64,000 nucleotides of DNA, from the NCBI GenBank assembly GCA_947629325.1, contig CANRDE010000002.1:785-64784 (forward strand), given 5' to 3'. The notes under the pieces are model-generated. The model was not told where the DNA came from, ran no database searches, and saw nothing but the letters and a program-made list of their open reading frames with translations. Position 1 is the stretch's first letter. Each line of letters opens with the position of its first letter. The stretch is from an uncultured Bacilli bacterium (GTDB lineage: Bacteria; Bacillota_I; Bacilli_A; RF39; UBA660). Below, one piece after another: positions 25,521-62,029 of the stretch. The translations under genes and the position numbers were made by a program.

Positions 25521-26261
25521 TTATATTAGATAAGTAAATAATAATATTACTATCCCTATCATTATACCATATAATGTCATTTTTTTCCTAAAAGAAGATT
25601 TAATTTCATTAAATAATTCAAAAATTAAAATATATAACAACATCCCGAATGTTAATGATAACAAAATATCTATTACAGCTTTATTTAAATTGCCAAAAAT
25701 AATAATTATCAAACTCCCAACCAAAGAGCTTAAACATAAAAATAATATTAGCAATTTACTATATTTCTTATTTTCTAAAGAATTACCAATTTGAAAACCT
25801 AAAGGAATATTATGAAAAGAAATACTGACCATCATAAGTAAACCAAATTTTATACTATTTAAGGTTATACTATAAAGAGTTAATCCCTCTAACATATTAT
25901 GAATAGCTAAAGCCAAAATTGTTATTATCCCAATATGATTTAAATGTAAATCATGATCATTTTTATCACAATGTTTTTCAGTATGTTCATGATGATGATG
26001 AGGGATTAACTTATCTAAAAAAATTAATATAAAAAATCCTAAACATACAGGAATTATTAAATAAATTTTATGAGTTTCTATTATTTCAGGTAATAAATCA
26101 AACAATAATAATCCTAGCATAACAACAAATGCCAAAGAAATAGTAAATAATGATAATGACTCTTTATTTTTGGCTTTTCGCAATGCCAATATGCCAATTA
26201 AAAAAAATAAACCTGTTAAAGTTGTAAAAATAAGCCCCAGTAACATTTCATAAATCACCAT
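25521..26261 (-). CDS. ZIP-family divalent metal transporter with a His-rich loop
   Basis: 246 aa, polytopic. Contains HNMLEGL and HNIPLGFQIG, plus the loop HHHHEHTEKHCDKNDHDLH. Confidence 0.75.
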   Translation of the reverse strand: MVIYEMLLGLIFTTLTGLFFLIGILALRKAKNKESLSLFTISLAFVVMLGLLLFDLLPEIIETHKIYLIIPVCLGFFILIFLDKLIPHHHHEHTEKHCDKNDHDLHLNHIGIITILALAIHNMLEGLTLYSITLNSIKFGLLMMVSISFHNIPLGFQIGNSLENKKYSKLLILFLCLSSLVGSLIIIIFGNLNKAVIDILLSLTFGMLLYILIFELFNEIKSSFRKKMTLYGIMIGIVILLFTYLI

Positions 26262-26330
26262 TTAAATTCTAACATTAATAGTAAATAAATAAAAGTATTT
26301 TTGGCTCATTTTCCCTTTTAATATTCCAAA

Positions 26331-26360
26331 AGAAAAAGTAGAATACTTTCTACTTTTTCT
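26331..26360 (-). terminator. hairpin terminator after the giant repeat gene
   Basis: AGAAAAAGTAGAA (26331-26343) pairs with TTCTACTTTTTCT (26348-26360), 4 nt past the stop codon. Confidence 0.45.
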
Positions 26361-26364
26361 CATA

Positions 26365-29300
26365 TTATCCTTCTTTTATTCTTTCACATGCTATTACGCT
26401 GAATTTCAAATTACCTTCTAAACTTTTACCAGCGTTAATAGTTTGATCATAATTACGATAATTTCTAAATAATAGTTTTACATCCCAATTTTGATCTGTA
26501 ATACTATTAGTTTTAACATTATTCTCGATTGTGAAAGTACCTAATTTATATTCTTTATTTTTAATTTCAACTAAATCAAGTCTATAAACTTTAGGTATCA
26601 TATTATTGTTATTTTCTTCAAAACCATTTATTTGTAAAATCAATTGTTCTTTTAAAGTACCATCACGATGTCTATTTTCAAAAGTATTTTTAATGGTTGT
26701 AAAGGTTGCCTCGTATGTACATCTAGTTATATCAGCATAAGATTGTAAAGAAACCTTAGAACGACTTTTATTACTTTCAAGTTCGATATATTCACTATCT
26801 CCTACTTTATCTTTAAGCATATCTTCTCTTTTGATATAAAGATTTACATTAGAGGTATTCATTACAGTAATTAAAGCATCAACTTTATCATCGTCATCGT
26901 CAGTTTCATGAGGTGGTTTATCATCACAATTTTTATCACATATTCCATCTCCATTAGTATCGATATTCTTATCCGGAATACCATCAGTTTCCGCTTTAAC
27001 GTCTGGATCGCCATCACCATCTGTATCGATATCAATATTTGGTTCAGGAGTAGTATCAATATTTAAATCGGCATCGCCGTCACCATCAACATCCACGTTA
27101 ATATCTGGCTTTTTATCTCCGTTAGTATCGATATTTAAATCTGGTAGACCATTTTTATTAGTATCGCAATTTAAATCACATTTGCCATCTTTATTAGTAT
27201 CAATATTAACATCGGGATTACCATCGCCATTTACATCACAATTTAAATCACATTCGCCATTAGTTTCCGCTTTAACATCCGGTAAACCATCACCATCTGT
27301 ATCAATATCCATATTTGGTACTTTAGTTACATCAATATTTAAATCGGGTTTTCTATCATTATTAGTATCTATATTGATATCTGGTTTTTTATCTCCATTA
27401 GTATCAATATTTAAATCTGGTAAACCATTATTATCCGTATCTATATTAATATCTGGTATTGAATCATTATTGGTATCTATATTGGTGTCTGGATTGCCAT
27501 CGCCATTTACATCACAATTTAAATCACATTTTCCATCATTATTGGTATCAATATTTAAATCGGGTTGACCATCACCATTGGTATCGACATTTTTATCAGC
27601 TTTACCATCAGTTTCTGCTTTGACATCCGGATCTCCATCACCATCAGTATCAATAGAAATGTTAGGAATTGGTGTTGTATCAACATTTACATCTGGTTTA
27701 TTATCACCATTTGTATCTATGTTGATGTCTGGTTTTTTATCTCCATTAGTATCAATATTTAAATCGGGTAAACCATTATTATCCGTATCTATATTAATAT
27801 CTGGTATTGAATCATTATTGGTATCTATATTGATATCTGGATTACCATCGCCATTTACATCACAATTTAAATCACATTTGCCATCAGTCTCGGCTTCAAC
27901 ATCTTTTTTACCATCGCCGTTTGTATCAATTTCGATATTTTTTTCAACGTTTCTATCAACATTTAAATCTGGTTTTTTATCTCCATTAGTATCACAATTT
28001 AAATCACATTTACCATCGGAATTAGTATCAATGTTTAAATCTGGTTTCATATTACCATCAGTATCAACATTAATATCGGGATTACCATCACCATCTATAT
28101 CAACATTAACATCGGGATAGCCATCTTTATTGACATCACAATTAAGATCACATTTACCATCTTTATTGGTATCTTGATTAGTTTTATTTTTATCAGGAAT
28201 ACCATCGGTTTCAGCATCAATGTCCGGATTGCCATCGCCATTAGTGTCTAGACCCATATTATGGTCAACTTGAGTATCTACATTAACATCTGGTTTGCCA
28301 TCCTTATCAATATCAATATTAATATCAGGAACACCATTATTATCGGTATCAATATTTAAATCAGGAAGCATATTATTATTCGCATCAATATTTATATCTG
28401 GTTTTAAATCATCATTAATATCGATATTATAATCCGGTACTAAATCACCATTTATATCACAATTAACATCGCATCTTTTATCCCCATCAGTATCAATATT
28501 AACATCCGGAATATTGTCGCCATCGATATCACAATTTAAATCACATCTACCGTCTTTATTGGTATCTTGATTTACTATATTTTTATCAGGGGTACCATCG
28601 GTTTCGGCTTCAACATCTTTTTTGCCATCCCCATTAGTGTCAATCATCATATTCTTATCAACATTGGTATCTATATTAATATCTGGTTTACCATCACCAT
28701 TAACATCAACATTAATATCTGGTTTACCATCAGAATTAGTATCAATATTTAAGTCTGGTTTCATATTACCATTATTATCAACATTAACATCTGGTTTGCC
28801 ATCACCATCTATATCAACATTAACATCTGGCCAACCGTCTTTATTAACATCACAATTAAGATTGCATTTACCATCGCCATCAGTGTCTTGATTAGTTAAA
28901 TTTTTATTTGGTTTACCATCATCATCCGTATCAACATTGATGTCTGGATTTAAATCATGATCATAATCAATATTTAAATCTGGAACACCATTTTTATCAG
29001 TATCAACATTTACATCCGGTTTGCCATCCCCATTAGTATCAATATTAACATCTGGAATATTATCATTGTTTATATCACAATTTAAATCACATCTACCATC
29101 TTTATTGGTATCTTGATTTAATTTGTTTTTATCTGGTTTACCATCAGTTTCCGCTTTTACATCATTTTTACCATCACCATTAGTATCGATATCGGTTTCT
29201 TTGTCTACACTTGTATCAATATTATAATCTGGTTTATTATCTCCATCAATATCTATATTAATATCTGGTTTGCCATCGGAATTAGTATCAATATTTAAGT

Positions 29301-30237
29301 CTGGTTTCATATTACCATTGGTATCGACATTAACATCAGGAATATTATTACCGTCTATATCGACATTAACATCTGGCCAACCATCTTTATTGACATCACA
29401 GTTAAGATCACACTTACCATCTTTATTAGTATCTCTATTACTTAAATTGCGATCTGGTTTACCATCACCATTAACATCTACATTAATATCGGGAATATAA
29501 TCATGGTTGTAATCAATATTTAAATCTGCTACTCCATTTTTATCAGTATCAATATTGATATCTGGTTTACCATCACCATCCATATCAATATTCAAATCTG
29601 GTAAATTATCCCCATTTAAATCACAATTTAAATCACATTTGCCATCATTATTTGTATCTTGATTAATTAAGTTACGATCTGGCTTACCATCAGTTTCTGC
29701 CTCAATATCTATATTATTATCTCCATCAGTATCAAGACCATATCTTTTATCTAAATTATTATCTATATTAAAATCGGGAATTCCATCACCATTCACATCA
29801 ATATTAATATCAGGAATTCCGTCACCATTAATATCAATATTAATATCTGGTAAGTTATTACCGTTAGTATCAATGTTTAAATCAGCTTTACCATCACCAT
29901 TAATATCTATATTATAATCGGGATGATTATCTTTATCAGCATCACAATTTAAATCACATTTACCATCATTATCAGTATCTTGATTTATAAAATTTTTATC
30001 TGGTTTTGAATCACCATTTAAATCCAAGTTAAATCGAGGAGTTTTCTTATCTTTTCCATAAGTAATATTAATATCTGGTAAACCATCACCATCAATATCA
30101 ATATTGACTCTTGACCTAAAGCCTCCCACTTCAAATATATAATAAGAAAGGATTAATATTAAACACAATATCATTATTATTAACATAATAACGATAGACA
30201 TTAATCTTTTTCTTTGTTTTTTATTTTGTACTTCCAT
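26365..30237 (-). CDS. giant membrane-anchored hyper-acidic repeat protein (DxDxDG-type Ca-loop array with C-x3-C pairs, plus a non-repetitive C-terminal beta-rich domain)
   Basis: Uninterrupted 1290-aa ORF. N-terminus is KKQRKR followed by one TM helix. Residues ~45-1090 are 12-residue D/N/G/P units. There are 14 C-x-x-N-C-D motifs and 8 AET[DN]G markers. A DDDDD run precedes the ~195-aa C-terminal domain. Confidence 0.85.
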   Translation of the reverse strand: MEVQNKKQRKRLMSIVIMLIIMILCLILILSYYIFEVGGFRSRVNIDIDGDGLPDINITYGKDKKTPRFNLDLNGDSKPDKNFINQDTDNDGKCDLNCDADKDNHPDYNIDINGDGKADLNIDTNGNNLPDINIDINGDGIPDINIDVNGDGIPDFNIDNNLDKRYGLDTDGDNNIDIEAETDGKPDRNLINQDTNNDGKCDLNCDLNGDNLPDLNIDMDGDGKPDINIDTDKNGVADLNIDYNHDYIPDINVDVNGDGKPDRNLSNRDTNKDGKCDLNCDVNKDGWPDVNVDIDGNNIPDVNVDTNGNMKPDLNIDTNSDGKPDINIDIDGDNKPDYNIDTSVDKETDIDTNGDGKNDVKAETDGKPDKNKLNQDTNKDGRCDLNCDINNDNIPDVNIDTNGDGKPDVNVDTDKNGVPDLNIDYDHDLNPDINVDTDDDGKPNKNLTNQDTDGDGKCNLNCDVNKDGWPDVNVDIDGDGKPDVNVDNNGNMKPDLNIDTNSDGKPDINVDVNGDGKPDINIDTNVDKNMMIDTNGDGKKDVEAETDGTPDKNIVNQDTNKDGRCDLNCDIDGDNIPDVNIDTDGDKRCDVNCDINGDLVPDYNIDINDDLKPDINIDANNNMLPDLNIDTDNNGVPDINIDIDKDGKPDVNVDTQVDHNMGLDTNGDGNPDIDAETDGIPDKNKTNQDTNKDGKCDLNCDVNKDGYPDVNVDIDGDGNPDINVDTDGNMKPDLNIDTNSDGKCDLNCDTNGDKKPDLNVDRNVEKNIEIDTNGDGKKDVEAETDGKCDLNCDVNGDGNPDINIDTNNDSIPDINIDTDNNGLPDLNIDTNGDKKPDINIDTNGDNKPDVNVDTTPIPNISIDTDGDGDPDVKAETDGKADKNVDTNGDGQPDLNIDTNNDGKCDLNCDVNGDGNPDTNIDTNNDSIPDINIDTDNNGLPDLNIDTNGDKKPDINIDTNNDRKPDLNIDVTKVPNMDIDTDGDGLPDVKAETNGECDLNCDVNGDGNPDVNIDTNKDGKCDLNCDTNKNGLPDLNIDTNGDKKPDINVDVDGDGDADLNIDTTPEPNIDIDTDGDGDPDVKAETDGIPDKNIDTNGDGICDKNCDDKPPHETDDDDDKVDALITVMNTSNVNLYIKREDMLKDKVGDSEYIELESNKSRSKVSLQSYADITRCTYEATFTTIKNTFENRHRDGTLKEQLILQINGFEENNNNMIPKVYRLDLVEIKNKEYKLGTFTIENNVKTNSITDQNWDVKLLFRNYRNYDQTINAGKSLEGNLKFSVIACERIKEG
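26970..30100 (-). repeat. in-frame nested tandem repeats (36-nt units inside ~0.35-0.55 kb super-repeats)
   Basis: For example, 27381-27540 and 27729-27888 differ at about 5 positions over ~160 nt (348-nt offset). Copies at ~28733 and ~29278 share ggaattagtatcaatatttaagtctggtttcatattaccatt. Confidence 0.85.
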
Positions 30238-30240
30238 ATA

Positions 30241-30900
30241 TTAAGCCCCCTCAACTATTTCATCTATTCTTCCATTTATAGTTGCACTTTGAACTTCTAG
30301 TTTTAAGTATACTAGCTTACCAACTTCAGTAGTTGGCGTATCTTCTGATAACCAAATATAAACACGATATTCTTTAGAATCACTATGATCTATAAAATCT
30401 CTTAAAACTGGATAAGATTCATCAGTCGGAGTAAAGGCAGTAATAGGAATATAATATTGATGCCCTCCATCTTCTGAAAAATCTACCCAGCCATGTTTTG
30501 TCTCATCATAAAGGCCTAAATTAATATAATCTAAATTTACTAATTCTGAAGTTTTGTGACCATTTTTAGATAAATTTTCATAATCATAGCCAATCGTTAT
30601 AACAAATTCTGCATCTAAAGAACCAGTATTTTTTAAGACTAATTTAGCATAGCTATCATTGACATTAGGATTATCATCAGTTGGCAAGTCAGATGTAGGC
30701 AACAAATCATTTGTATTCATCGCTGCTGAAGATGTATCAATTAAAACATTTAAAGTTCCCGTTGAAATTTCTTTGAAAGTTGTTGGAGTTTTAACTGAAA
30801 AAAAGGCAGAATAGGAAAAAGCCAAAGTAATTAAAGTTAAAATCAGAACAGATATAATAATTATTTGTGCATTGTGTTTAGTCTCTTTTCCTAATTTCAT
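30241..30900 (-). CDS. TasA/camelysin-like secreted protein (tentative)
   Basis: 219 aa. An N-terminal anchor is followed by AFSYSAFFS....TFKEISTGTLNV, which resembles the SipW-type signal/TasA N-terminus pattern (GT.AaF.d....F..GTL.l). An AGGTGA RBS is present. The gene lies 3 nt upstream of the giant ORF. Confidence 0.45.
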   Translation of the reverse strand: MKLGKETKHNAQIIIISVLILTLITLAFSYSAFFSVKTPTTFKEISTGTLNVLIDTSSAAMNTNDLLPTSDLPTDDNPNVNDSYAKLVLKNTGSLDAEFVITIGYDYENLSKNGHKTSELVNLDYINLGLYDETKHGWVDFSEDGGHQYYIPITAFTPTDESYPVLRDFIDHSDSKEYRVYIWLSEDTPTTEVGKLVYLKLEVQSATINGRIDEIVEGA

Positions 30901-31030
30901 CCTATGTCACCTTATTCTAAGTTTATCACATATTTTTTTAACAAACAATATAAAATTTTTGCTATTAATTAATATTGTTTACTTTTATAAAGAAATAATG
31001 CTATAATATCTTGGTTAAACGGGTGATTTT

Positions 31031-39615: not shown

Positions 39616-39642
39616 ATAAAAAAAGGCTTTTTAAAAGCCTTT
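39616..39642 (-). terminator. intrinsic terminator of the pilin-like operon
   Basis: AAAGGC....GCCTTT hairpin followed on the minus strand by T7. Confidence 0.55.
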
Positions 39643-40117
39643 ATTCACAACTACAACTATTATATTCGTCTTTCCAAGAATCAGTAGATAATTCTCCATT
39701 ATTTTGATAGTCTCTATATTTTTGCCCTACAAAGCTAAATTCCGCTCCTTTTTGGAAATATAAAGTATAACTATTTGGCGTTCCAATTGTTATTTCTACT
39801 TTACCATTAAAGGTTCCTTTTTCAGCTTTATAAAAACCGGAATCTATTAATTTATTAACTGTTAAACATACTTTATTAGCTGACTTACAACTAGTTTCAT
39901 TGTTATCAATTTTAATATTATTTATTCCTAAATTATAAGAATCTAGAAAATCATCAGCCGCTTTAACAACATTTGAAGCTTCAATTCTAAAAGCGTCTTC
40001 TCTCACACCACTACCAGTGTAAGGCAAAATGGCACTTACTGCAATAGTGGTAACAATAGCTAATACTACTATAACTGCCAATAATTCTATTAAAGTAAAA
40101 CCTTTTTTATTTTTCAT
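39641..40117 (-). CDS. type IV pilin / pseudopilin-like protein
   Basis: 158 aa. Class III signal MKNKKG/FTLIELLAVIVVLAIVTT. Internal Cys pair plus C-terminal ..NSCSCE. Confidence 0.8.
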   Translation of the reverse strand: MKNKKGFTLIELLAVIVVLAIVTTIAVSAILPYTGSGVREDAFRIEASNVVKAADDFLDSYNLGINNIKIDNNETSCKSANKVCLTVNKLIDSGFYKAEKGTFNGKVEITIGTPNSYTLYFQKGAEFSFVGQKYRDYQNNGELSTDSWKDEYNSCSCE

Positions 40118-40132
40118 TTATATCAAACCTAA

Positions 40133-40651
40133 CTATTCACCACAAGTAAAACTACCTAATTCATCATGTTGGGATTTATCGTAATCTTTTAAATCTTCTT
40201 TCTTAACTTCACCGGAAGTTTTTGTTACATAATAGCTTTCGTTATGCATATTAATACTATATGTATAACCAGGGCTATCATTCTTACTTGTAACTTTTAC
40301 AACGCCTTCATATTTATCAGTAGCTATATCGGAAACATCTTTATTTTTCAAAAATCCTAATTCAATTAATTTAGTCATCGTAAAACAATAAACTGTTTCA
40401 CTATCACTGGTTGTAACTTTATAATTGCTATCTTGACTACCTGCTTGAACATATCCAAGACTAATTGCTGTTATAGCATCAGAAGCACCAGTTCTCAATG
40501 CGTTGGCTTCAACTACGAAAGCGTCTTGTTTCACAGATGGTATTTGAGGTAAAACAACACTAACGGCAATAGTAGTAACAATTGCTAGTACTACAATAAC
40601 TGCTAATAATTCAATTAAAGTAAAACCTTTCTCATTTCTAAAAGTTTTCAT
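40133..40651 (-). CDS. type IV pilin / pseudopilin-like protein (paralog of 39641..40117)
   Basis: Start is placed at MKTFRNEKG/FTLIELLAVIVVLAIVTT, with GAGGTGA upstream. The ORF-track start is 40708. The C-terminus reads ..GSFTCGE. Confidence 0.8.
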   Translation of the reverse strand: MKTFRNEKGFTLIELLAVIVVLAIVTTIAVSVVLPQIPSVKQDAFVVEANALRTGASDAITAISLGYVQAGSQDSNYKVTTSDSETVYCFTMTKLIELGFLKNKDVSDIATDKYEGVVKVTSKNDSPGYTYSINMHNESYYVTKTSGEVKKEDLKDYDKSQHDELGSFTCGE

Positions 40652-40736
40652 ACAACTTTCACCTCTATCTTCTAAATTAATCTTACAATAATTATGTTTT
40701 AATGTCAATTATTAAGAATTTATTTTACAATTATTC

Positions 40737-41717
40737 TTAATTTTCTATATGATTTATTATATAACTAGTACTGCTAATATTACCCACGGTATCTTTAACG
40801 CAGATTAAATAATTTCCGTTAGCACTTACTATAAATTTATTATTACTTTGATACTTATTTAAAATACTATTACTGGTACATAAAGTTCCTGAAGGAACAA
40901 TTCCCATAAAATATTCCTTAATTCCGGATCCATTACCATCGCTAGCTTCAATGGTTACTTCTTTAGTTTTAGTATTAACAAATTTATTAGAAACTTTTAT
41001 TTCATTTTCATAAATAACCGGACTCTCATTATCTATTTTTAAATTAACTATCTTATTATATCTTTTTATTTCTTTACTTTCTCCATCTAAAACTATGTAT
41101 TCAAAACTATATCTTGTTTGTAATATTCCTTTTATATCGTCTATTAAAATATTACTAACTCCGCTTTTGCTCGCCCCACTACTACTATGCCATAAACATT
41201 TACTACTACTACAATCAATATTTACAGTATTACTAAATGCACTTAAAGAAACTGTTCCTTTTAACCAAGCATTGGTATTTAATACGGAGGCTCCATTATT
41301 TATAATATCAATATTAATATCTTCATTATAATTATTTAGTTTTTGGGAATCACATTCACCATTTGCTTCATAACTTTCCCCATCAATAAATTGAGCGGTA
41401 TAATAATTTTTCTCTTTGGTCATTTCCACTAAATAACAATTCATTTTCATGTTATTTAAAGGGTCAATTATACTATCATCATCATCGCTATCTAAGTAGC
41501 CATTTTTAATAAGAGTATCAACAAAAACTAAAGTTTCTTTAGTATCATAAGCATATTTAGCTGCCGCAATTTCGATATTATTTATAATACTTTTTCGATG
41601 ATTTTCTCTTATTTTATTGGCAAAAATACTAATATTAGGAATTAAAAGGGCCATAAGTAAAGACAAAATGGCTATTGTCGCTAATAATTCAATTAAGGTA
41701 AACCCTTTATTATTCAT
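40737..41717 (-). CDS. large type IV pilin-like protein with an extended C-terminal (Ig-like?) region
   Basis: 326 aa. Begins MNNKG/FTLIELLATIAILSLL. AGGTGA RBS. A TTGAAT-17-TAAAAT promoter-like element lies at ~41735-41765. Confidence 0.75.
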   Translation of the reverse strand: MNNKGFTLIELLATIAILSLLMALLIPNISIFANKIRENHRKSIINNIEIAAAKYAYDTKETLVFVDTLIKNGYLDSDDDDSIIDPLNNMKMNCYLVEMTKEKNYYTAQFIDGESYEANGECDSQKLNNYNEDINIDIINNGASVLNTNAWLKGTVSLSAFSNTVNIDCSSSKCLWHSSSGASKSGVSNILIDDIKGILQTRYSFEYIVLDGESKEIKRYNKIVNLKIDNESPVIYENEIKVSNKFVNTKTKEVTIEASDGNGSGIKEYFMGIVPSGTLCTSNSILNKYQSNNKFIVSANGNYLICVKDTVGNISSTSYIINHIEN

Positions 41718-41794: not shown

Positions 41795-42646
41795 TTAACT
41801 AAAAGCTACATCCAACATCATCATAATAACAAAACCTAATAAAGTAAAAAAACTCATTAAATTTTTCTTTTTATTATTTTGACTTTCCGGAATTAACTCA
41901 CTAACAGCAACATATATCATAGCTCCAGCGGCAAAAGCCAAGAAAAAGGGCAAAATATTTTTAACATAAATAACTAAAAAGCATCCTATTAATCCCGCAA
42001 TTGGTTCAACAATTCCCGAAAGCATTCCTAAAACAAATGATTTTATGCGGCTAAAATTTTCTCTCCTTAAGGGAAGACTAACAGCAGTTCCTTCGGGAAA
42101 ATTTTGAATTCCTACTCCAACAGCTAACATAAAGGCCGCGGTCAAAGATGATAAATTATTATTTCCAACTATAGATCCAAAAGCAACACCAATAGCTAAT
42201 CCTTCGGGAATATTATGCAAAGTAATAGAAAACATTAACATTAAACTTCTTTTTAGGCCTTTTAAGTTTTTTTGTTTTCTTTTATTTAATATGTGAGCAA
42301 AAAAATTATCTCCCGCTATTAAGATAATGCTTCCGGCTAAAAAGCCAATTGAAACAACTAACCAAGCTACCATTCCTAACTCTTTGGCTTCCTCTATAGC
42401 CGGATTTAATAAGGACCAAAATGATGCCGCAATCATAACTCCTGCGGATAATCCTAACATAGCATCTAAAATAGTACCATTCACTTTTTTAAAAAAGAAA
42501 ACAATAGCAGCTCCTAAAGAGGTAATTGCCCAAGTCATAAGAGTAGCAATTAATACTTGAATGTAGACTCCTGAATTAATATAAAAATCAACCAATTTAA
42601 ACACCCTATTATAGTATAGGCTTTCTAAATTTCTTTGTGTAGGCAA
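41795..42646 (-). CDS. ZIP-family zinc/metal transporter (ZupT/GufA-like)
   Basis: Contains HNIPEGLAIGVAFG and QNFPEGTAVSLPL. The listed start is a TTG without an RBS, directly after the neighbour's terminator. The true start is probably within 42538-42595. Confidence 0.8.
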   Translation of the reverse strand: MPTQRNLESLYYNRVFKLVDFYINSGVYIQVLIATLMTWAITSLGAAIVFFFKKVNGTILDAMLGLSAGVMIAASFWSLLNPAIEEAKELGMVAWLVVSIGFLAGSIILIAGDNFFAHILNKRKQKNLKGLKRSLMLMFSITLHNIPEGLAIGVAFGSIVGNNNLSSLTAAFMLAVGVGIQNFPEGTAVSLPLRRENFSRIKSFVLGMLSGIVEPIAGLIGCFLVIYVKNILPFFLAFAAGAMIYVAVSELIPESQNNKKKNLMSFFTLLGFVIMMMLDVAFS

Positions 42647-43775: not shown

Positions 43776-44957
43776 TTATTTATACATAATGTCAATATCA
43801 ACATCGCCATTTATGCCATCAATTTGGCCATTATTACACATTTGCCAAATTTGATAATCACCCTCATAATTTGTTTTAGAAGTATAATGGGCTAACCAAA
43901 TCGGAAAATTTAACTTGTTAGTCCAAATCGTCTCTAAATAAAATTTGCTACTATAAAGCATTCCTTCATAGCCTTTACTCTTTACAGTAGACATAAAAGT
44001 ATTAGCTATATCATTTATTTCGTAAAAACTTATTTTATAAGAATTCCAATTAGTCCAATTTTCCCAGTCAAAAACAATAGGTAAGTCTAATTTTTCACCA
44101 TCTAAAATATCTAGTACCCAATTTGCATGTTCTAAAGCCTCTTTTTTAGTGGTAGCAATACTATATAAATAAACTCCTACTTTTAACCCAGCCTCTTTGG
44201 CCTTTTTTAGATTTTCTTCATAAAATGAATCTAAGCTTAATTCACGAGTTTCTGATCCTTCTACCCCAATTCGAATCATAACAAAACTAGCTCCAGCATT
44301 TTTGACTTTTTCAAAATCGATATCACCTTGCCATTTTGATACATCAATACCGATTTCATTATTATCATTTTTATATTTTGCATATACATCTTGAAAAGAA
44401 GTTTTAACAACGTCTGTATTACTTCCACCATTGTTTGCTTTTTTTATTACATTTAAAGTAACATTAACTTTTTTAATATTATTACTACTATCACTTAATT
44501 CATATTTTAACTGATACTTTCCTTCTTTTCCTAAATCATAATCCCCGGTAATTGTACATTTTATATTTCCACTATAATTATCACCATAAGTAATTAAATT
44601 ACATAAATCACCTTTATAATTTATATTAACAGTTTTATTCGTGCCACTAAATACAATAGGAGGTTCACTATCTACAATATTGACCATAAATTTATAGACA
44701 TATTTCTTATCATCTTTTTTATAATAAACTTTGTATTCTTTTTGTCCCAATTTTTTTGTATCTATATCATAGTTTTTGCTTATAATTTCAGCATCTTTAA
44801 TAGATATGATATCATAAAGCTTCATTTCATTATAAACTTCGATATTATCTTGAATAACATTTATATAATTCTGATTTATATCTTCTTTAGCTATAATTGG
44901 AAGATAAGAATTTAAAAAACCAAATAATATTGCCATTATAATTTTCATAACAATCAC
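43776..44957 (-). CDS. secreted GH25 muramidase with N-terminal Ig-like domain(s)
   Basis: 393 aa. GIDVSKWQGDIDFEKVKNAGASFVMIRIG is the GH25 signature. Upstream, DSEPPIV...GKYQLKYELSDSSNN is an Ig-like repeat. The start may be the ATG at 44948. Confidence 0.8.
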   Translation of the reverse strand: MIVMKIIMAILFGFLNSYLPIIAKEDINQNYINVIQDNIEVYNEMKLYDIISIKDAEIISKNYDIDTKKLGQKEYKVYYKKDDKKYVYKFMVNIVDSEPPIVFSGTNKTVNINYKGDLCNLITYGDNYSGNIKCTITGDYDLGKEGKYQLKYELSDSSNNIKKVNVTLNVIKKANNGGSNTDVVKTSFQDVYAKYKNDNNEIGIDVSKWQGDIDFEKVKNAGASFVMIRIGVEGSETRELSLDSFYEENLKKAKEAGLKVGVYLYSIATTKKEALEHANWVLDILDGEKLDLPIVFDWENWTNWNSYKISFYEINDIANTFMSTVKSKGYEGMLYSSKFYLETIWTNKLNFPIWLAHYTSKTNYEGDYQIWQMCNNGQIDGINGDVDIDIMYK

Positions 44958-54946: not shown

Positions 54947-55949
54947 AATATAATGCTCTCTTTCCAAATAAATTATACATTTTTTCAAATTGTTGTTTTT
55001 CATAATACTCTATTTTACCAGTATAAGGGTCAGAAACAATTATATTTTTATAATCATAGCCAAAAATAACCATACTATGCAAATCGCAAATCCATTCAAC
55101 TTTTTCCTTTGTATCTTCGTCAAGCCAACTAGTACAAACTGAAGTATCTTTTAAATTGATAGATGCCCAAACTTGTACTGGTTTATTTTCTTTAACTAAT
55201 TTTAAAATATCACCTAGTGATGTTCCCGTTTTATCAATCACACCACTTTTAAAATGCTCAGCCGTTTGTATTATAGGCTTTTCATACACGCCATAGCCAC
55301 TATATAATCTTGGATCACCTACAAATTCTCTTTCCGGATTTCCGCCATAACGAACCCCATTCACATAAAATGGACTACTTCCCATAGGTAAAATATCAAT
55401 TATTTCCGGCATAGTAACTTTAACCCCATTATATGTCAATAAAATCCACAAGGCTACACTTTCACAACCATTAGGATAATCTGGATATTGATGATAAGTT
55501 GGGGCATTATTAATAAGATGGGAAGTTTGGGCATATAAATCATCATATTTTTTCTTTAAATCGTTAAAAGTATCAGTTACACTTGTTAATTCTTGATTTT
55601 TAATACTTATATCATTATTCAATTTTTGATATTCATTTAGATAAGCTTCTCTTTCTTCCGCATTTAAATTACTATTTCCTTTATAATTTTTCTCTGCTTT
55701 GTTTATTTTCTGGATTTGCTCATCTATGTTAGAAATTTCTTCCTCTAAACGAGAATTCTCTTGGCCATTTACAAACTTCGAATTATAATACTGGATAAGA
55801 GGCTTAGTTAAGAAATTAGCCCAACAAATTGTAAGTATTAATATAATTAACATTGCAATTTTTTTATATTGCGGCCGGATTTTTTTAGCAATAATATATA
55901 AATAAATTATTAAGATTAAAAAGCTTACTATTAAAATAGTATTTAACAT
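54936..55949 (-). CDS. membrane-anchored Peptidase_C39_2 (YvpB/BtrH-like) cysteine peptidase-fold protein with a coiled-coil linker
   Basis: 337 aa with two N-terminal TM helices and a coiled coil. QYPDYPNGCESVALWILL is the catalytic Cys motif, followed by ..LHSMVIFGYD..VSDP (His/Asp). The start overlaps the asnB stop by 7 nt. Confidence 0.65.
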   Translation of the reverse strand: MLNTILIVSFLILIIYLYIIAKKIRPQYKKIAMLIILILTICWANFLTKPLIQYYNSKFVNGQENSRLEEEISNIDEQIQKINKAEKNYKGNSNLNAEEREAYLNEYQKLNNDISIKNQELTSVTDTFNDLKKKYDDLYAQTSHLINNAPTYHQYPDYPNGCESVALWILLTYNGVKVTMPEIIDILPMGSSPFYVNGVRYGGNPEREFVGDPRLYSGYGVYEKPIIQTAEHFKSGVIDKTGTSLGDILKLVKENKPVQVWASINLKDTSVCTSWLDEDTKEKVEWICDLHSMVIFGYDYKNIIVSDPYTGKIEYYEKQQFEKMYNLFGKRALYYEN

Positions 55950-57784
55950 ACTTCACCATTGCTTTCAAAGAACACTTCATACCAAATTATAAACATTAAA
56001 ACATTATATATTTCATGCATATGAGATATTTTGGTGTGATAATGTTCATCTAGTAATTGATTTAAATATGTTACATTAAAGAAATCTTTTACAAAAGGTT
56101 TATTAAACTTTTCTTTAACATAATTATAATACTTTGGTTCTCTAATCCATTTACTAAAAGGAACGGGAAAGCCAAGCTTTCTTCTATTTGCCCATTCTTC
56201 TGGTAATTCTTGATGAGCAATAGCTCTAAATAAATATTTAGTCTTTTTGTCTTTTATCCAAAATTTAGAAGGGATTTTTTTAGAGTAATTAAAAACATCT
56301 ATATCCAGTAAAGGAACCCTTAATTCTAAAGAATTAGCCATAGCCATTTTATCAGCTTTTAATAAAATATCTTCTGGTAGCCAAAAATGCATATCAATAT
56401 ACATTTTTTGCGTAACATCATCACAATCTTTGACCTCATCAATTAAAGGTTTAATAATATCTTTTAAACTTTCATCAGTTCTTAAGTTAGGATTTAATAA
56501 CTTATTAGCTTCTTCTTCTGACAAAGAAGAACCATGACCAATATATCTTTCATATAAAGGTTTACCATATTTTATTAAAGTATTTTGCCCTGGAAAATGA
56601 GGTAATGGTTTAATTACTTTGGCTACCCATTGGCGAATAAATAAAGGAATTTTAGTATAAATTTTTAAAATTACCGGCTCATAATATTCGTTATAGCCCC
56701 CAAACATTTCATCACTTCCCTCACCCGATAAAACCACTTTGACTTCTTGACTAGCTAGCTCGGATAAAAAATATAAAGGTACAGTAGAAATATTAGCATG
56801 AGGTTCATCAGTATGATACATAATAGTTGGTAAAATATTAAAAAATTCCTCACTACTGATATGTTTACGATAATTTTTAATTTTTAAGATATGTGATAAC
56901 TCTTGGGCCATTTTGGTCTCATCAAATCCTTCAATATCAAAACCAACACTGAAAGTTTTATCAGGTTTAGCTACACTTACTACATAAGAAGAATCGACTC
57001 CCCCGGAAAGATAAGCCCCTACTTCCACATCACTAGTGATTTGATGATATTTTACGGATTCTTTTAAAACTTTTTGTAATTCTTCTTTATAATAATTAAA
57101 ATCTTTTGGCTCTTTAGGATAATTTATTTTAAAATATTCTTGGGTTTTAAACTTACCATTTTGATACTTAAAAAAAGTTCCTGGTTTTAACTTATAAACA
57201 TTTTTAAAAAAAGTTTCATTATGAATAGAATATTGGAAGATCAAATACATTTTTAAAGCTTTAGTATTAACTTCTTTATGAAATTGAGGATGTTCTAAAA
57301 AAGATTTTATCTCGCTACCAAATAAAAATGCATCATCTGTTAAATAATAATAAAATGGTTTGATACCAAAATAATCTCTCGCCCCAATTAATTCTTTAGT
57401 TTTTAAATCATATATAACAAAAGCAAACATTCCTCTTAGTTTAGAATATAAATCATCTTGATATTCTTCATAACCATGTAGGATAACTTCTGTATCGGTA
57501 TTAGTACGAAATTTATGTCCTTTTTTTAATAAATCTTCTTTTAATTTTTCATAATTATAAATTTCCCCATTAAAAATAATAACTTTGGATTTATCTTCAT
57601 TAAAAATAGGTTGTTTTCCACTATTAATATCAATTATGGAAAGACGCCGATGACCTAAAGCAATGTAGGAATCAGTGAAATATCCTTCATCATCGGGACC
57701 ACGATGAATAATTCGATCCGCCATTTTTTTAATAATTTGCTTTTTATTTTTATCTTTACTAATAAAACCTGTGATTCCACACAT
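55943..57784 (-). CDS. asnB: asparagine synthetase B-family glutamine amidotransferase (copy 1)
   Basis: 613 aa. MCGITGF gives the Cys2 nucleophile. LSGGVDSS is the PP-loop. Also contains EGSDEMFGGY. Confidence 0.85.
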   Translation of the reverse strand: MCGITGFISKDKNKKQIIKKMADRIIHRGPDDEGYFTDSYIALGHRRLSIIDINSGKQPIFNEDKSKVIIFNGEIYNYEKLKEDLLKKGHKFRTNTDTEVILHGYEEYQDDLYSKLRGMFAFVIYDLKTKELIGARDYFGIKPFYYYLTDDAFLFGSEIKSFLEHPQFHKEVNTKALKMYLIFQYSIHNETFFKNVYKLKPGTFFKYQNGKFKTQEYFKINYPKEPKDFNYYKEELQKVLKESVKYHQITSDVEVGAYLSGGVDSSYVVSVAKPDKTFSVGFDIEGFDETKMAQELSHILKIKNYRKHISSEEFFNILPTIMYHTDEPHANISTVPLYFLSELASQEVKVVLSGEGSDEMFGGYNEYYEPVILKIYTKIPLFIRQWVAKVIKPLPHFPGQNTLIKYGKPLYERYIGHGSSLSEEEANKLLNPNLRTDESLKDIIKPLIDEVKDCDDVTQKMYIDMHFWLPEDILLKADKMAMANSLELRVPLLDIDVFNYSKKIPSKFWIKDKKTKYLFRAIAHQELPEEWANRRKLGFPVPFSKWIREPKYYNYVKEKFNKPFVKDFFNVTYLNQLLDEHYHTKISHMHEIYNVLMFIIWYEVFFESNGEVC

Positions 57785-57790
57785 TTATAA

Positions 57791-58996
57791 CTACCTCCAA
57801 TAACTATTTTTGTATTCTTTATAATAGTTAAACCATCTTTTTCTAAGCATTAAAAATCTTTTAAAATTTTTATCACAGGGAGCGTCCATCGGTTTAATAA
57901 CATTTTTCCACATCTTTAAAGCTTCTTTTTTAAAAATTTCGTTTTGAATATATTTTTTTACTATACCTTTAGGCACAAACGAAAGCAATACTTTTTTATC
58001 TAAAAAAACAAACTCATGTTGCTTTTTATTTATTAAATCATCAACTAAAACTTCAACTAAATTTTTACCTAGCTTGGCCACATAGTAACTGCTTCGGCCT
58101 TGTCTTGCGTTTATTTCTAATACTTTAAAAGTGTTATCTTTAGGATCGTATTTCATATCAACTTCCGCAAAGCCACGGTAATTAATATTTTCCATAAATT
58201 CTTTTAATATTTTTACTTGTTTTTTTACATCTCCCTTAATTGTATTAAAACCATTTATTAAGACAGCAGCATTTCCTACCATGCTTTTAGTTCTTTCTTG
58301 CAAACCAATTTGAGCAAAACTGATAAATTCTACTTTACCTTTAGTATTGACATAGAGAACTGCATCAAATAAATTATCATCACCACCGGCAATAAATTCT
58401 TGAATAATGACTTTATCATTATAACCACCATTTTTAATTAAAGATAAAGTATTAAGAAGTTCTGTTTCATTATTAATCTTATATATTTTATTTTTGCCCT
58501 CAAATTTTAAATGATTATATGTAACGACATTAGAAGGTTTTAAAACAAGGGGATAAGTTAAATTTGTCGTATCTAATTTAGCATCTAAATTATAATATAT
58601 TGTTTTGGGAAAAGATAGTTTATTATTGGCATATTTTTTATAAAAATTTTCTTTATTAGTTAAACTCATAATAACGTCTAAATCAGGAACATTGAAAAGA
58701 AAATCTTTAGCTAACTTGGTTTGATTTTTACTAATAAATTCTGTATATGTTTCATTTGTACTTATTAGTAATATCGGCTCATTGTGTTCTTTTTTAAATT
58801 TAGCTAAAATTTTTAAAAATCCTTTTTCATTCCAGATATCTTCTTCATAAGTAATATGAAGTATATTACTATAACTAGTAAATGATAAAGGAGCTCGCCC
58901 AATTAAGTAAGGCTTTTTCTTTAAAAATTCATAACAACATCTTGCCATATAATAAGCATTAGGATCACTTCCTAAAATTAATACTTCCAAATTCAT
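57791..58996 (-). CDS. ATP-grasp carboxylate-amine ligase (COG3919 / D-aspartate-ligase-like)
   Basis: 401 aa. Contains LILGSDPNAYYMARC, YPLVLKPS, IIQEFI.G and VLEINARQGRS. Confidence 0.7.
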   Translation of the reverse strand: MNLEVLILGSDPNAYYMARCCYEFLKKKPYLIGRAPLSFTSYSNILHITYEEDIWNEKGFLKILAKFKKEHNEPILLISTNETYTEFISKNQTKLAKDFLFNVPDLDVIMSLTNKENFYKKYANNKLSFPKTIYYNLDAKLDTTNLTYPLVLKPSNVVTYNHLKFEGKNKIYKINNETELLNTLSLIKNGGYNDKVIIQEFIAGGDDNLFDAVLYVNTKGKVEFISFAQIGLQERTKSMVGNAAVLINGFNTIKGDVKKQVKILKEFMENINYRGFAEVDMKYDPKDNTFKVLEINARQGRSSYYVAKLGKNLVEVLVDDLINKKQHEFVFLDKKVLLSFVPKGIVKKYIQNEIFKKEALKMWKNVIKPMDAPCDKNFKRFLMLRKRWFNYYKEYKNSYWR

Positions 58997-59008
58997 TACT
59001 AATCCTTT

Positions 59009-60184
59009 CTAATATTTAACTATTTTTTCTTTTCCCTTCTCTTGATGAATTCTTACCACTCTAGTTGTAATCATGTTAAACAAATGATAACTATTTGTAT
59101 TCAAAGTTCTCATTACTTCATTAAGCGAAATATGATTACCAAATATTTCTACCTGATCATTTATTTTAACTTTATCATCAACTAAAACCATTAACATATC
59201 CATCGTTTCACTAACTATTTCATATTTTTTATTATTAATAGAAACCCATCTAAATTTTTTAGTTACTCCGTCTGCATAACCAATAGGAATGGTGGCAAGA
59301 TAGCCATCATTTTGTATTTCATATTCAGCGTTATATCCGACTTTCTCCCCTTTTTTTACTTTTCTTAAGGCCAAAACTTCCGTATATAAACTAAAAGCAG
59401 TTTTTAATTTTAAATCTTGAGAAATAGAAGGACTAATATGATGCCATTTTAAATAAATATTTCTTTTTATTTTTCTTAAATGACCTTTTAAACTAGTATC
59501 AATATTAATATGATTATCAAAACCATACATCATTATCCCTAACCGGACTCCCGTCACATATTTCGGCCTTTTATGTCTTACTAAAGTAATACTGCGATCA
59601 AAATGAATAATAGGTATTTTAGCCAAATCAATATTTTGCAACATATCATATATTTTATTTAATTGTTTATCATAATAAATATCATAATAACCACTTGTTG
59701 CAAAATGAGTATAGATTCCTTCTAAAAAAATATTATCATGCTCACAAACTATTTTATAGGCTTCTTCTAAATCAATTTTATTTTTGAAACCAAGACGATT
59801 CATTCCTGAATCTATTTTAAAATGAACTTTTAAATTGAATTTATTATTTAAATTAACTATTTCTTTTAAATAGTCTACACTTTCAATTGTTAAAGTTAGA
59901 TTATTTTGCCAAGCAATTTTAACATGTTCAATATTAATTGGTTCTAAAATAAGAATGGGAACATCTTTATATAATGATCTTATTTCTAAGGCTTCGTCTA
60001 AACTAGAAACCGCTAAATAATTAATGCCTCCTTTTAATAACGAAGAAATAACATTTATCCCATGATGATAGCAATTATTTTTTACTACTCCAATATAATA
60101 TTGGTATTTAAATGTGGTTGTTATTTTGTGAACATTTTCTTCTAAAATATCATTATTAATTAAGGCATAAGTTTTTCGATACAA
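59009..60184 (-). CDS. alanine-racemase-fold (PLP fold type III) amino-acid racemase, divergent active-site motif
   Basis: 391 aa. GVVKNNCYHHG sits where the canonical motif is VVKANAYGHG. Also contains IDSGMNRLG and PIGYADG. Confidence 0.7.
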   Translation of the reverse strand: MYRKTYALINNDILEENVHKITTTFKYQYYIGVVKNNCYHHGINVISSLLKGGINYLAVSSLDEALEIRSLYKDVPILILEPINIEHVKIAWQNNLTLTIESVDYLKEIVNLNNKFNLKVHFKIDSGMNRLGFKNKIDLEEAYKIVCEHDNIFLEGIYTHFATSGYYDIYYDKQLNKIYDMLQNIDLAKIPIIHFDRSITLVRHKRPKYVTGVRLGIMMYGFDNHINIDTSLKGHLRKIKRNIYLKWHHISPSISQDLKLKTAFSLYTEVLALRKVKKGEKVGYNAEYEIQNDGYLATIPIGYADGVTKKFRWVSINNKKYEIVSETMDMLMVLVDDKVKINDQVEIFGNHISLNEVMRTLNTNSYHLFNMITTRVVRIHQEKGKEKIVKY

Positions 60185-60199
60185 TTTAATCCCCTCACT

Positions 60200-62029
60200 T
60201 TAAGCTTTTTTTTTATCTAAGAAAAATACTTCATACCATTTTAAAAAGGTATATATAGCCCATACTTTTTTATACGTGTCATGATCTTCTTTATGACATT
60301 TATTCAATAATTTAAGAATATAATCTTGATTGAAAAATAATTTAGCATGTTCACTTTTGAATGTTTTAGTTATTTCTTTTTGATATTCTTTTAAATTAAT
60401 CCAAGATCTTAGCGGAACCGGAAACCCTAATTTTTTCTTTTTATACGCCTCAGTAGGAATACTTTTTTTAGCGGCCTCTCTTAACGCTACTTTAGTATTT
60501 TCTTTGGTTACTTTCATATCCATTGTTAAAGAACTAGCCAAAGAAAATACTTCTTTATCAATAAATGGTACTCGTAATTCTAAAGAATTGGCCATACTCA
60601 TCCGATCAGCTTTTTGAAGAATATCTTTAACCAACCAAAAGTTAATATCGATTGCTTGCATTTTTATTAGATCATTTTTATTTTTATATTTTTGAAAAAT
60701 ATCTTTAGTTAAATCTTTATTTTTAATTTTACTAGTAAAATTAAGAACTTTTTGACATTCTTTATCACTAAAAACACGACTCATTCCAATATAATTATCT
60801 TCTAATTTCATTCCTCTTCGCACTAAAAAATTACGGCCTCTAAATTCAGGTAAAAAATTTAATATTAACGCTATGGCATGTCTAATAAAATAAGGAATTT
60901 TATTATAGAAATTCATATCAATTGTTTCGCGATAAGTATTATATCCTCCAAAAAATTCATCAGCACCCTCACCCGATAATACTACTTTTATATCTTTGCT
61001 AGCTATTTCCGAAAGAAAATATAAGGCAATAGCAGCTGGATCACTAATTGGTTCATCCATATGATACATAATTTTAGGAACAATTTTTAAATATTCTTTT
61101 TCATTAATTTTGCGATCAACATTTTCAATTTTTAATTTAGAAGCTAAATCTTTTGCATAATTGGTTTCTGTATATTTAGGAATATCATACCCTACCGTAT
61201 AGGTTTTATTAGGTTTAGCCAAAGCAACAATATATGAAGAATCAATTCCGCTTGATAAATATGATCCTACTTCTACATCACTTTCTAAGTGATGTTTTAC
61301 TGAATCCTTCATAACTTCATCAATTTTTTGAGCTGCTTCTGCCAAATTTAATTTTTCTTCTTGAAAATCTATTTCATAATATTTTTGTAAAGTTATTTCA
61401 TTATTTTCATATATTAAAGAATAACCCGGATCTAAACGATAAACATTTTTAAAGAAAGTTTCCGTAGTTGGCGTAAAACTAAAGGTTAAATATGGTCCTA
61501 ATAAATCTTTGTTAAATTCTTTTACAAAATCAGGGTGTTCTAAAAAAGATTTAATTTCACTGGCAAACATAAAAGTATTATTAAATTGGCAATAATAAAA
61601 AGGCTTAATTCCAAAATTATCGCGACTACAAAATAAAATCTTTTTTTTCTTATCATAAATGGCATAAGCAAACATTCCTCTTAACTTTTTAGGTAAATCA
61701 TAACCAAATTCCTCATAACCATGAACTAAAACTTCTGTATCAGTTGTCGTTTTAAATTGATGTTTTTTGGCCACTAATTCGTTTTTTAATTCTTTATAAT
61801 TATAAATTTCCCCATTAAAAACGACTACAACATCCTCCGTTTCATTAAAAATAGGTTGCTTTCCATTATTAAGATCGATAATAGATAAACGGCGATGTCC
61901 TAAGGCAATAAAGTCATCCACATAATACCCTTCATCATCGGGACCACGATGAATAATCCGGTCAGCCATTTTTTTAATTATTTTCTTTTTATTCTTTTGT
62001 GAATTTACAAATCCCACAATTCCACACAT
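60200..62029 (-). CDS. asnB: asparagine synthetase B-family glutamine amidotransferase (copy 2)
   Basis: 609 aa. Contains MCGIVGF, the PP-loop variant LSSGIDSS and EGADEFFGGY. It is clearly paralogous to copy 1 (shared KKMADRIIHRGPDDEGY, HRRLSIID). Confidence 0.85.
   Translation of the reverse strand: MCGIVGFVNSQKNKKKIIKKMADRIIHRGPDDEGYYVDDFIALGHRRLSIIDLNNGKQPIFNETEDVVVVFNGEIYNYKELKNELVAKKHQFKTTTDTEVLVHGYEEFGYDLPKKLRGMFAYAIYDKKKKILFCSRDNFGIKPFYYCQFNNTFMFASEIKSFLEHPDFVKEFNKDLLGPYLTFSFTPTTETFFKNVYRLDPGYSLIYENNEITLQKYYEIDFQEEKLNLAEAAQKIDEVMKDSVKHHLESDVEVGSYLSSGIDSSYIVALAKPNKTYTVGYDIPKYTETNYAKDLASKLKIENVDRKINEKEYLKIVPKIMYHMDEPISDPAAIALYFLSEIASKDIKVVLSGEGADEFFGGYNTYRETIDMNFYNKIPYFIRHAIALILNFLPEFRGRNFLVRRGMKLEDNYIGMSRVFSDKECQKVLNFTSKIKNKDLTKDIFQKYKNKNDLIKMQAIDINFWLVKDILQKADRMSMANSLELRVPFIDKEVFSLASSLTMDMKVTKENTKVALREAAKKSIPTEAYKKKKLGFPVPLRSWINLKEYQKEITKTFKSEHAKLFFNQDYILKLLNKCHKEDHDTYKKVWAIYTFLKWYEVFFLDKKKA

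Follow-up and report, generated by a model that had tools for sequence, protein, structure and literature searches.

The best described surface fibres of the TasA superfamily are those of Bacillus subtilis, in which the signal peptidase SipW cleaves both TasA and TapA, the donor strand of TasA starts at the cleavage site and completes the next subunit, and TapA supplies the first strand (PMC9674648, PMC10151520). In haloarchaeal Tat-fimbriae (Tafi), a protein with a transmembrane (TM) helix and a jelly-roll domain, TafF, was proposed as the membrane anchor (PMC12337348), and in other members of the superfamily calcium drives assembly (10.64898/2026.01.04.697558). Here we describe two adjacent genes from an uncultured Bacilli bacterium (GTDB lineage RF39, UBA660), located on a stretch of 64,000 nucleotides of contig CANRDE010000002.1 that we refer to as the window and whose coordinates are used throughout unless another locus is named. 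The genes encode a small protein of 219 aa (30241-30900, minus strand) and a giant protein of 1290 aa (26365-30237, minus strand, stop codon included). It is about evenly balanced, in our judgement, whether the two are an operon for a surface-fibre module of the TasA/SipW type (TasA superfamily), reduced and highly divergent, in which an anchor, a stalk and an acceptor domain are combined with a subunit that docks or polymerises. The surface-fibre theme of this superfamily is already known; new here is the stalk, a hypervariable series of acidic 12-residue repeats to which a pilin-like domain is joined.

The two genes are separated by 3 nt and the GAGGGGG Shine-Dalgarno sequence of the giant gene sits within the 3' end of the small gene, so they are probably translationally coupled. 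An earlier interpretation made from the letters of the window only (the sequence-only reading) had presented the two open reading frames (ORFs) as one tight unit, which was borne out both by their sizes and spacing and by a synteny check, in which the pair was found kept in at least 11 distinct loci of gut metagenomes or metagenome-assembled genomes (MAGs; their hosts are goats, rabbits, chickens and Hadza humans, and their labels read 'Bacilli bacterium' or 'uncultured Mycoplasma sp.'). A hidden Markov model (HMM) of the C-terminal domain of the giant located the large gene directly behind the small one at ten loci, nine of them distinct from the window, with gaps of -11 to +16 nt and products of 582-1290 aa, and at the same spot in locus L031 we found a large protein of only 251 aa (P0050) with two repeats. 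The window copy was the longest large protein seen here. This range of 251-1290 aa (about 2 to about 88 repeat units) marks the repeat block as a spacer whose length varies widely. The recurrent gene order was TypA (divergent), small gene, large gene and then genes for a ZIP transporter, an epimerase and a patatin. Variants of this order included L016 (5978-7516), where the small gene is followed by a 513-aa repeat protein with another type of C-terminal domain (P0075 type), and L014 (13460-14752), where no giant follows the small gene, a repeat protein of the P0133 type is encoded 4 kb downstream and an ORF resembling a protein of ~180 aa (p180, see below) precedes the small gene. A scan of metagenome contigs with a narrow alignment yielded only 4 short loci.

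The small protein starts with a basic N-terminus, followed by a hydrophobic segment of ~22 residues that ends in SYSAFF and by a domain that was modelled by AlphaFold2 (AF2) as a beta-sandwich (pLDDT 72.8). In its 44 close homologues, all of them unnamed, the residues Y30-S31-A32-F33-F34 just after the hydrophobic segment are invariant. The SYSAFF motif resembles the end of a SipW-type signal, with a putative cleavage site between SYSA and FF; F33 would then be the start of the mature form, and the N-terminal strand reads FFSVKTPTTFKEI. A profile of the family collected 456 clusters (50% identity) among 1.84 billion representatives, and in these matches the domain was always N-terminal and often followed by adhesin-like modules (e.g. 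CarboxypepD_reg, SdrD_B, SpaA, LysM and DUF6273). A type IV pilin identity was rejected because the small protein lacks the motif G/FTLIE (the slash marking the cleavage site), and no model match supports the idea of a camelysin-type metalloprotease, for which a zinc-binding motif was not specifically checked.

The link of the small family to TasA proper is weak but consistent. The first Foldseek match of the small-protein model was, at low significance, the TasA fibre structure 8aur_A (E=7e-3, probability 0.80, TM 0.32), and the next ones were other donor-strand subunits, FimA and Saci_0406. When a profile of 148 sequences of the small family was compared by hhalign with TasA (using a TasA sequence checked against 8aur and 5of1), 67 columns were aligned (P=4e-4), pairing IGxSYAxFFxVKSNTNxQxITTGxLxV...LxPxSD...NTGTL with GGGTWAAFNDIKSKDATFASGTLDL...LKPGDK...ENNGSL of TasA. 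The aligned stretch covers the end of the TasA signal, the donor strand and the first strands, and places the invariant SYSAFFS opposite GTWAAFND of TasA. Neither the small protein nor its 26 aligned homologues gave a Pfam or NCBIfam match to Peptidase_M73, BioflmMtrxTasA or the SipW-signal model (for the first two even at E<=10, in the small protein and 25 aligned homologues), and a search of PDB sequences with the protein and its profile returned nothing meaningful. Among 81 more distant relatives the matches were few and sub-threshold: one to Peptidase_M73 (PF12389, E=2.4e-4), two to the SipW-signal model TIGR04088 (...G-T-[FYW]-A-[YAF]-F-[ST]-D; best E=0.004, and not reported for the small protein of the window) and one to the TasA equivalog NF046066 (E=0.08). 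Together with the adjacency of SipW in distant relatives described below, the Foldseek and hhalign matches suggest that the small protein belongs to a remote TasA-superfamily family without a Pfam model. The TasA/camelysin-like label of the sequence-only reading thus holds at the level of a remote relative, while the protein fails the Peptidase_M73 and TIGR04088 models.

The adjacency of SipW was found only in the more distant relatives L017, L018, L021, L027 and L029. The clusters of L021, L029 and L027 encode one to three free proteins of ~200-240 aa with the motif GxTFA[YF]F, one or two membrane-anchored proteins with the putative calcium-binding repeat (P0075 and P0133 types), SipW, p180 and a protein of the small family. 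The signal peptidase was assigned to SipW because it scored above the cut-off of TIGR02228 (103.7 versus 51.85 bits) and matched the SipW equivalog NF046067 (E=1e-31). TIGR04088 scored 16.8 bits on a 242-aa neighbour in L021, against a cut-off of 19, and the profile of the small family (A1) matched a 404-aa protein of the same locus (97%, E=8e-11). L017 and L018 have, in this order, TypA, QueH, SipW, p180 and a small-like gene, an arrangement that occupies the same position beside TypA as the window pair. The components are connected to each other by hhalign: the free GxTFAFF proteins to the P0075-type C-terminal domain (91%, E=1e-6), this domain to its P0133-type counterpart (98.8%, E=6.8e-17), the P0133-type domain to the small family (74%, E=2.8e-5, 141 columns) and p180 to the small family as well (97.8%, E=1.3e-12).

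Some of these clusters hold further genes. Between the repeat genes of the SipW clusters of L019 (4314-7987) and L027 (3865-7474) we observed a block of three genes, encoding a protein of ~355 aa, a protein of ~500 aa with a GISGTGKT P-loop and a DUF2357 protein, which has the look of a McrBC-type restriction or defence insertion. In L017 (10198-11826) the genes for SipW, p180 and the small-like protein are followed directly by one for a 543-aa protein, the end of which (NPQTG, then a hydrophobic segment and KKNHK) resembles a sortase-type sorting signal; this protein may be a further surface component of the cluster.

The giant ends in a domain that belongs to the same network. The non-repetitive C-terminal domain (residues ~1119-1290; 26368-26883, minus strand) carries two conserved Cys residues and is ~172 aa long, somewhat shorter than the ~195 aa of the sequence-only reading. 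AF2 predicted a jelly-roll beta-sandwich for it (residues 115-285 of the modelled query, block-mean pLDDT mostly 73-92). No Pfam or NCBIfam family reached threshold with the isolated domain. Its HMM matched the 227-aa free protein of L027 (E=1.3e-5), with the positions of a T-C-x-Y motif and of a C-terminal Cys common to both, and by hhalign the domain matched the free GxTFAxF proteins (89%, E=2.3e-6). Judged from these profile comparisons, the C-terminal domain of the giant is a pilin-like jelly roll homologous to the free SipW-signal proteins.

The N-terminus of the giant is basic, as had been noted before, and is followed by a hydrophobic segment of ~23 residues (residues ~13-35; 30133-30201, minus strand) that ends in ILSYYIFE. 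This segment had been taken for a TM helix; it could be a signal anchor or a signal peptide of the SipW type, since in the orthologues it is followed by [ST][ST]F[TV][FW][EQ]xxG, a SipW-signal-like motif that makes permanent membrane anchoring uncertain. The motif core [ST][ST]F[TV][FW][EQ] was kept in all orthologues of the giant and resembles the GATFSYE, GTYAYL and GxTFAxF motifs of every other family of the SipW clusters, so the giant might be cleaved and released. It would then consist of a donor-strand-like segment (TFxFE..FG), a calcium wire and an acceptor domain, and could assemble head to tail into a matrix of calcium-crosslinked beads on a string in which the small protein is optional. 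Calcium-triggered assembly has a precedent in the TasA superfamily (AbpX; 10.64898/2026.01.04.697558). The absence of SipW near the pair, the TM-like character of the hydrophobic segment and the long cytoplasmic N-terminal extensions of the P0075- and P0133-type relatives, which are more typical of anchors than of signal peptides, speak against such a released polymer, which we consider improbable.

Between the hydrophobic segment and the C-terminal domain lies the repeat stalk (residues ~44-1105; 26923-30108, minus strand), about 88 contiguous 12-residue units as judged from motif counts and periodicity. The consensus P-D-[ILV]-N-[IV]-D-[TI]-[ND]-G-D-G-K consists of three 4-residue sub-units, each with Asp at position 2. 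Identity at a lag of 12 residues was 0.40 in the repeat region, compared with 0.125 +/- 0.0085 in shuffled sequences (about 32 standard deviations), and with the additional 4-residue sub-period (x-D-x-N) the unit reads (P-D-I-N)(I-D-T-N)(G-D-G-K). We counted 46 matches to D-x-[DN]-x-[DN]-G, 45 to PD[ILV..]N[IV]D and 14 to CxxNCD (11 of them exactly CDLNCD), and the 8 copies of AET[DN]G delimit super-repeats of 182, 182, 131, 107, 92, 116 and 92 aa; a DDDDD run follows at residues ~1115-1119. In this respect the sequence-only reading was reproduced throughout (contiguous DxDxDG-type units, 14 Cys pairs, 8 markers, DDDDD and a non-repetitive tail). Its description of a protein made almost only of D, N, G, P, K and I was mildly overstated: these six residues dominate residues 41-1095 (D 24.8%, N 17.2%, G 9.1%, I 8.8%, K 7.4%, P 6.1%) and make up 73% of them, or 89% together with T, V and L. 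Compared as DNA, the repeat copies are 70-85% alike (periods of 36, 72, 276, 348 and 393 nt); they are old and diverged, not freshly duplicated. The possibility that the repeats are an ORF artefact of low-complexity DNA was rejected, the frame being kept across orthologues with an intact C-terminal domain. On the opposite strand, antisense to the repeat region, there are ORFs of 60-180 aa rich in S, L, P and F (27182-29500, plus strand); these (e.g. 27578-28120, plus strand) were rejected as genes and considered mirror artefacts of the periodic coding sequence.

The stalk is putatively calcium-binding: both the binding of Ca2+ and a stiffening by it are suggested by the DxDxDG motif and the high Asp content. 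The nearest known design had been sought in thrombospondin type-3 repeats, and the likeness consists of contiguous acidic DxDxDG-type loops of which some copies are stapled by Cys. It is confined to the motif level: the families listed for the whole giant (E<=1) and for isolated repeats of 182 aa and 41 aa (E<=10) included neither TSP_3 nor a bacterial TSP3 model. Unlike thrombospondin type-3 repeats, the giant has a strict 12-residue period with a 4-residue sub-period, and its Cys pairs lie within one unit (C-x3-C), where they take the place of Pro1 and Ile5 in 14 units (KPDLNID becoming KCDLNCD). Nor are the Cys pairs a defining trait, as had been implied: 10 orthologues carried 0, 0, 0, 0, 8, 9, 14, 20, 27 and 35 CxxxC pairs, and the replacement of residues of the ordinary unit points to an optional staple. 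Isolated repeats gave faint matches to FG-GAP and EF-hand calcium loops (E=0.06 to 4), and the only strong matches in the curated libraries were compositional, to the Ser-Asp repeat regions of MSCRAMM adhesins. A 304-aa repeat block found no relative among PDB sequences.

Repeats of this kind are not confined to the pair. A query of the C-terminal domain plus a few repeats showed the same 12-residue repeat, PD(L/I)N(I/V)DT(D/N)GDGK, to occur in over 580 further database proteins (among them P0049-P0164, for instance P0049, P0068, P0069 and P0119). Most of these have no Pfam domain, and some have a cadherin-like, Flg_new or MBG_2 domain. In two, P0049 and P0119, it adjoins a hydrophobic, basic-tailed C-terminal end, by eye a probable anchor, which fits a generic spacer role. 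The repeat therefore appears to be a widespread, unannotated spacer of Bacillota surface proteins; the motif was not found in the literature text searched. A functional analogy may exist with the giant RTX adhesins such as MpIBP and LapA, in which calcium-stiffened extenders, built of Ig-like domains of about 100 aa that are unrelated to the units of the giant, hold a distal domain off the cell by a long repetitive stretch stabilised by metal or disulfides. Unlike these adhesins, the giant appears to lack a type I secretion (T1SS) signal.

This use as a spacer also bears on the main rival explanation, a stand-alone stalked adhesin, in which the giant alone would be the anchor, the calcium-stiffened extender and a distal, lectin-like ligand-binding jelly roll, and the small protein a separate membrane or accessory protein (e.g. 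a helper in folding or export) and not a fibre subunit. The same repeat serves as a spacer in many unrelated surface proteins, the hypervariable length of the stalk is as expected of a surface-exposed extender, the model of the C-terminal domain resembles CBM61, the C-terminal domain of a phage tail spike, TNF-like and other binding jelly rolls, and neither SipW nor a major pilin gene is found near the pair. Three observations argue in the other direction: in at least 11 loci the giant and the small gene are strictly paired and tightly coupled, even when the subtype of the C-terminal domain changes, this domain is homologous to free, pilin-like SipW-signal proteins and not to any lectin family, and SYSAFF is invariant in the partner. 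On balance we regard the adhesin as rather unlikely.

The product of the ZIP transporter gene directly downstream of the giant (25521-26261, minus strand) contains an HHHHEH loop, and matches to Pfam Zip were obtained for its orthologues from related loci. The sequence-only reading had offered a cell-surface sink for divalent cations as an alternative and had pointed to this neighbouring gene, with whose product such a sink might work. The stalk is indeed strongly acidic (roughly 25% Asp) with about 88 potential sites, and the ZIP gene is directly downstream in the relatives too. The two genes are however separated by an intrinsic-terminator-like hairpin (26328-26361, minus strand), already seen in the earlier reading and confirmed by folding, with a 14-bp stem, a 4-nt loop and a U-run (-16.1 kcal/mol, z = -5.07; none of 200 shuffles was equally good). 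The ZIP, epimerase and patatin genes moreover belong to a conserved backbone: L014 has the ZIP gene behind the small gene without a giant in between, and in L027 it lies beside NMT1/ABC genes, with the TasA-like cluster several kb upstream, beyond SpoU, SecE and NusG. The two-repeat orthologue of 251 aa keeps the same synteny, so that binding capacity is not conserved, and a sink offers no role for the conserved C-terminal domain or for the partner. We therefore consider a cation sink highly improbable and the link to ZIP to be one of backbone synteny.

The reading as a TasA/SipW-type surface-fibre module, which we prefer, accommodates both proteins. The giant would be exported and remain in the membrane by its N-terminus, projecting a strongly acidic chain of about 88 DxDxDG-type units that may bind Ca2+ and stiffen, and whose length would be free to evolve. 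At the tip the stalk would present a disulfide-containing jelly roll of the kind that the SipW clusters encode as free, pilin-like subunits. The segment of the small protein after the putative SYSA/FF cleavage site, which aligns with the donor strand of TasA, could dock into this terminal domain by donor-strand complementation, and the small protein would thereby cap the stalk, or polymerise from it and start a short fibre. In its role the giant would then be the counterpart of TapA in Bacillus and of the proposed anchor TafF in haloarchaeal Tafi, with a calcium-repeat spacer added.

Compared with the tapA-sipW-tasA system (including camelysin, CalY, of B. cereus), the features apparently in common are putatively secreted subunits with a predicted jelly roll, a long hydrophobic signal-like segment that ends in aromatic-Ala-aromatic-Phe and is followed by a donor-strand-like segment, an envelope-associated accessory protein and, in the distant relatives of the window genes only, a SipW-type signal peptidase in the same cluster. 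Unlike in that system, the window pair stays below all curated thresholds and has neither sipW nor a free major subunit gene nearby. TapA donates its N-terminal strand, whereas the giant, if tethered by its N-terminus, could only accept a strand; neither TapA nor TasA has an inserted long Asp-rich repeat stalk. The architecture corresponds to that of TafF as described in PMC12337348: the giant combines a hydrophobic segment (residues ~13-35) with a C-terminal jelly roll and has an adjacent TasA-like gene, and its 251-aa orthologue P0050 is essentially a helix with a jelly roll. Export is presumably Sec-dependent and not Tat-dependent as in Tafi, and the literature consulted on Tafi held no counterpart of the calcium-repeat spacer. 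The putative use of calcium is shared with AbpX and the cannulae, also of the TasA superfamily, whose pili include AbpA, AbpX and the Saci_0406 threads; in AbpX calcium is bound at the donor-strand interface, whereas the putative sites of the giant lie in a separate repeat wire.

Several results weigh against a fibre module. No curated TasA, camelysin or SipW-signal model reached threshold for either window protein, and the Foldseek match of the small protein to TasA is weak (E=7e-3, TM 0.32). The model of the C-terminal domain matched only generic jelly rolls in Foldseek and not TasA specifically (Bd1399, FimG, CBM61, a capsid protein, a phage tail-spike C-terminal domain and TNF-like domains). 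By hhalign, neither this domain nor the C-terminal alignment showed direct similarity to the small family, to which it is linked only via the intermediate families. For most of the repeat segment the AF2 pLDDT was below 50. No SipW-like gene was found in the 64-kb window or in 163 kb across 12 related loci, which leaves processing, and hence a free donor strand, unproven in this lineage. SipW may lie in another part of these genomes; if it does not, both proteins would remain anchored in the membrane. A free major-pilin gene was not seen near the pair either. In the checks by HMM and Foldseek proposed with the sequence-only reading, none of the Peptidase_M73/TasA, TSP_3 and SipW-signal models was above cut-off, and the TasA fibre came first for the small protein. 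The hypothesis of that reading, a stalk or an anchor for a fibre on which a TasA-like subunit is presented or nucleated, is partly supported and, in the sharpened form given above, still the best reading.

A more far-reaching form of this reading is that one polypeptide has replaced the shaft of a TasA-type pilus, giving a non-polymeric 'pseudo-pilus' without a dedicated SipW in a gut lineage with reduced genomes. The Ca2+-loaded chain of 12-residue units might then have a fold not seen before, a narrow solenoid or 'wire' in which internal Cys staples are optional, its length would be tuned by gain and loss of repeats, and its single pilin-like domain would be capped by one TasA-like subunit via donor-strand complementation. 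In its 12 residues and internal Cys pairs the unit is reminiscent of narrow beta-solenoids, for example the Tenebrio antifreeze protein. We consider this form unlikely; if true, it would define a new, widespread and unannotated calcium-binding spacer repeat of Bacillota surface proteins.

If the pair is a fibre module, the range of the TasA superfamily, with its matrix fibres and pili built by donor strands, would extend to uncultured gut Bacilli with reduced genomes, and a variable-length stalk of contiguous DxDxDG units would be a new way to anchor or present a TasA-like subunit. Pfam is blind to every component of the clusters described here, i.e. the small family, the free GxTFAxF proteins, the calcium-repeat proteins and the ~180-aa protein. 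The 12-residue acidic repeat, which has neither a family model nor a solved relative, is a good target for structural work and for calcium-responsive biomaterials. The module also leads to predictions on surface architecture and on attachment to host or mucus in organisms that have not yet been grown.

Upstream of the small gene the promoter-like element of the sequence-only reading was recovered by direct reading of the minus strand: a -35 box TTGTTT (30948-30943), a spacer of 17 nt ending in TGa and a -10 box TAAACT (30925-30920), followed by a Shine-Dalgarno sequence AGGTGA (30907-30912, minus strand) 6 nt before the ATG. All elements are present, yet promoter-like matches are not enriched in this AT-rich DNA (25-30% GC; 37 found versus 51 +/- 7 expected), so that the promoter is plausible and unproven.

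Elsewhere in the window, a second ZIP-like candidate was recognised by eye (41795-42646, minus strand). Three consecutive genes (158, 191 and 326 aa; 39641-41717, minus strand) have products that start with a prepilin/ComG-like KGFTLIELLA and look like a pseudopilin or competence-pilus cluster, the sequences of which are unrelated to the TasA-like pair. Two asparagine-synthetase-like paralogues (613 and 609 aa) flank ATP-grasp-like and alanine-racemase-like genes, again judged by eye (55943-62029, minus strand); these may form a cluster for the modification of cell-wall peptides, in which case peptidoglycan is probably present in this organism, even though related MAGs bear 'Mycoplasma' labels. 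Finally, a 393-aa protein (43776-44957, minus strand) has a C-terminal half that resembles a GH25 muramidase, on account of the motif GIDVSKWQGDIDF, which we take to be typical of such enzymes, and an N-terminal region of unassigned type.

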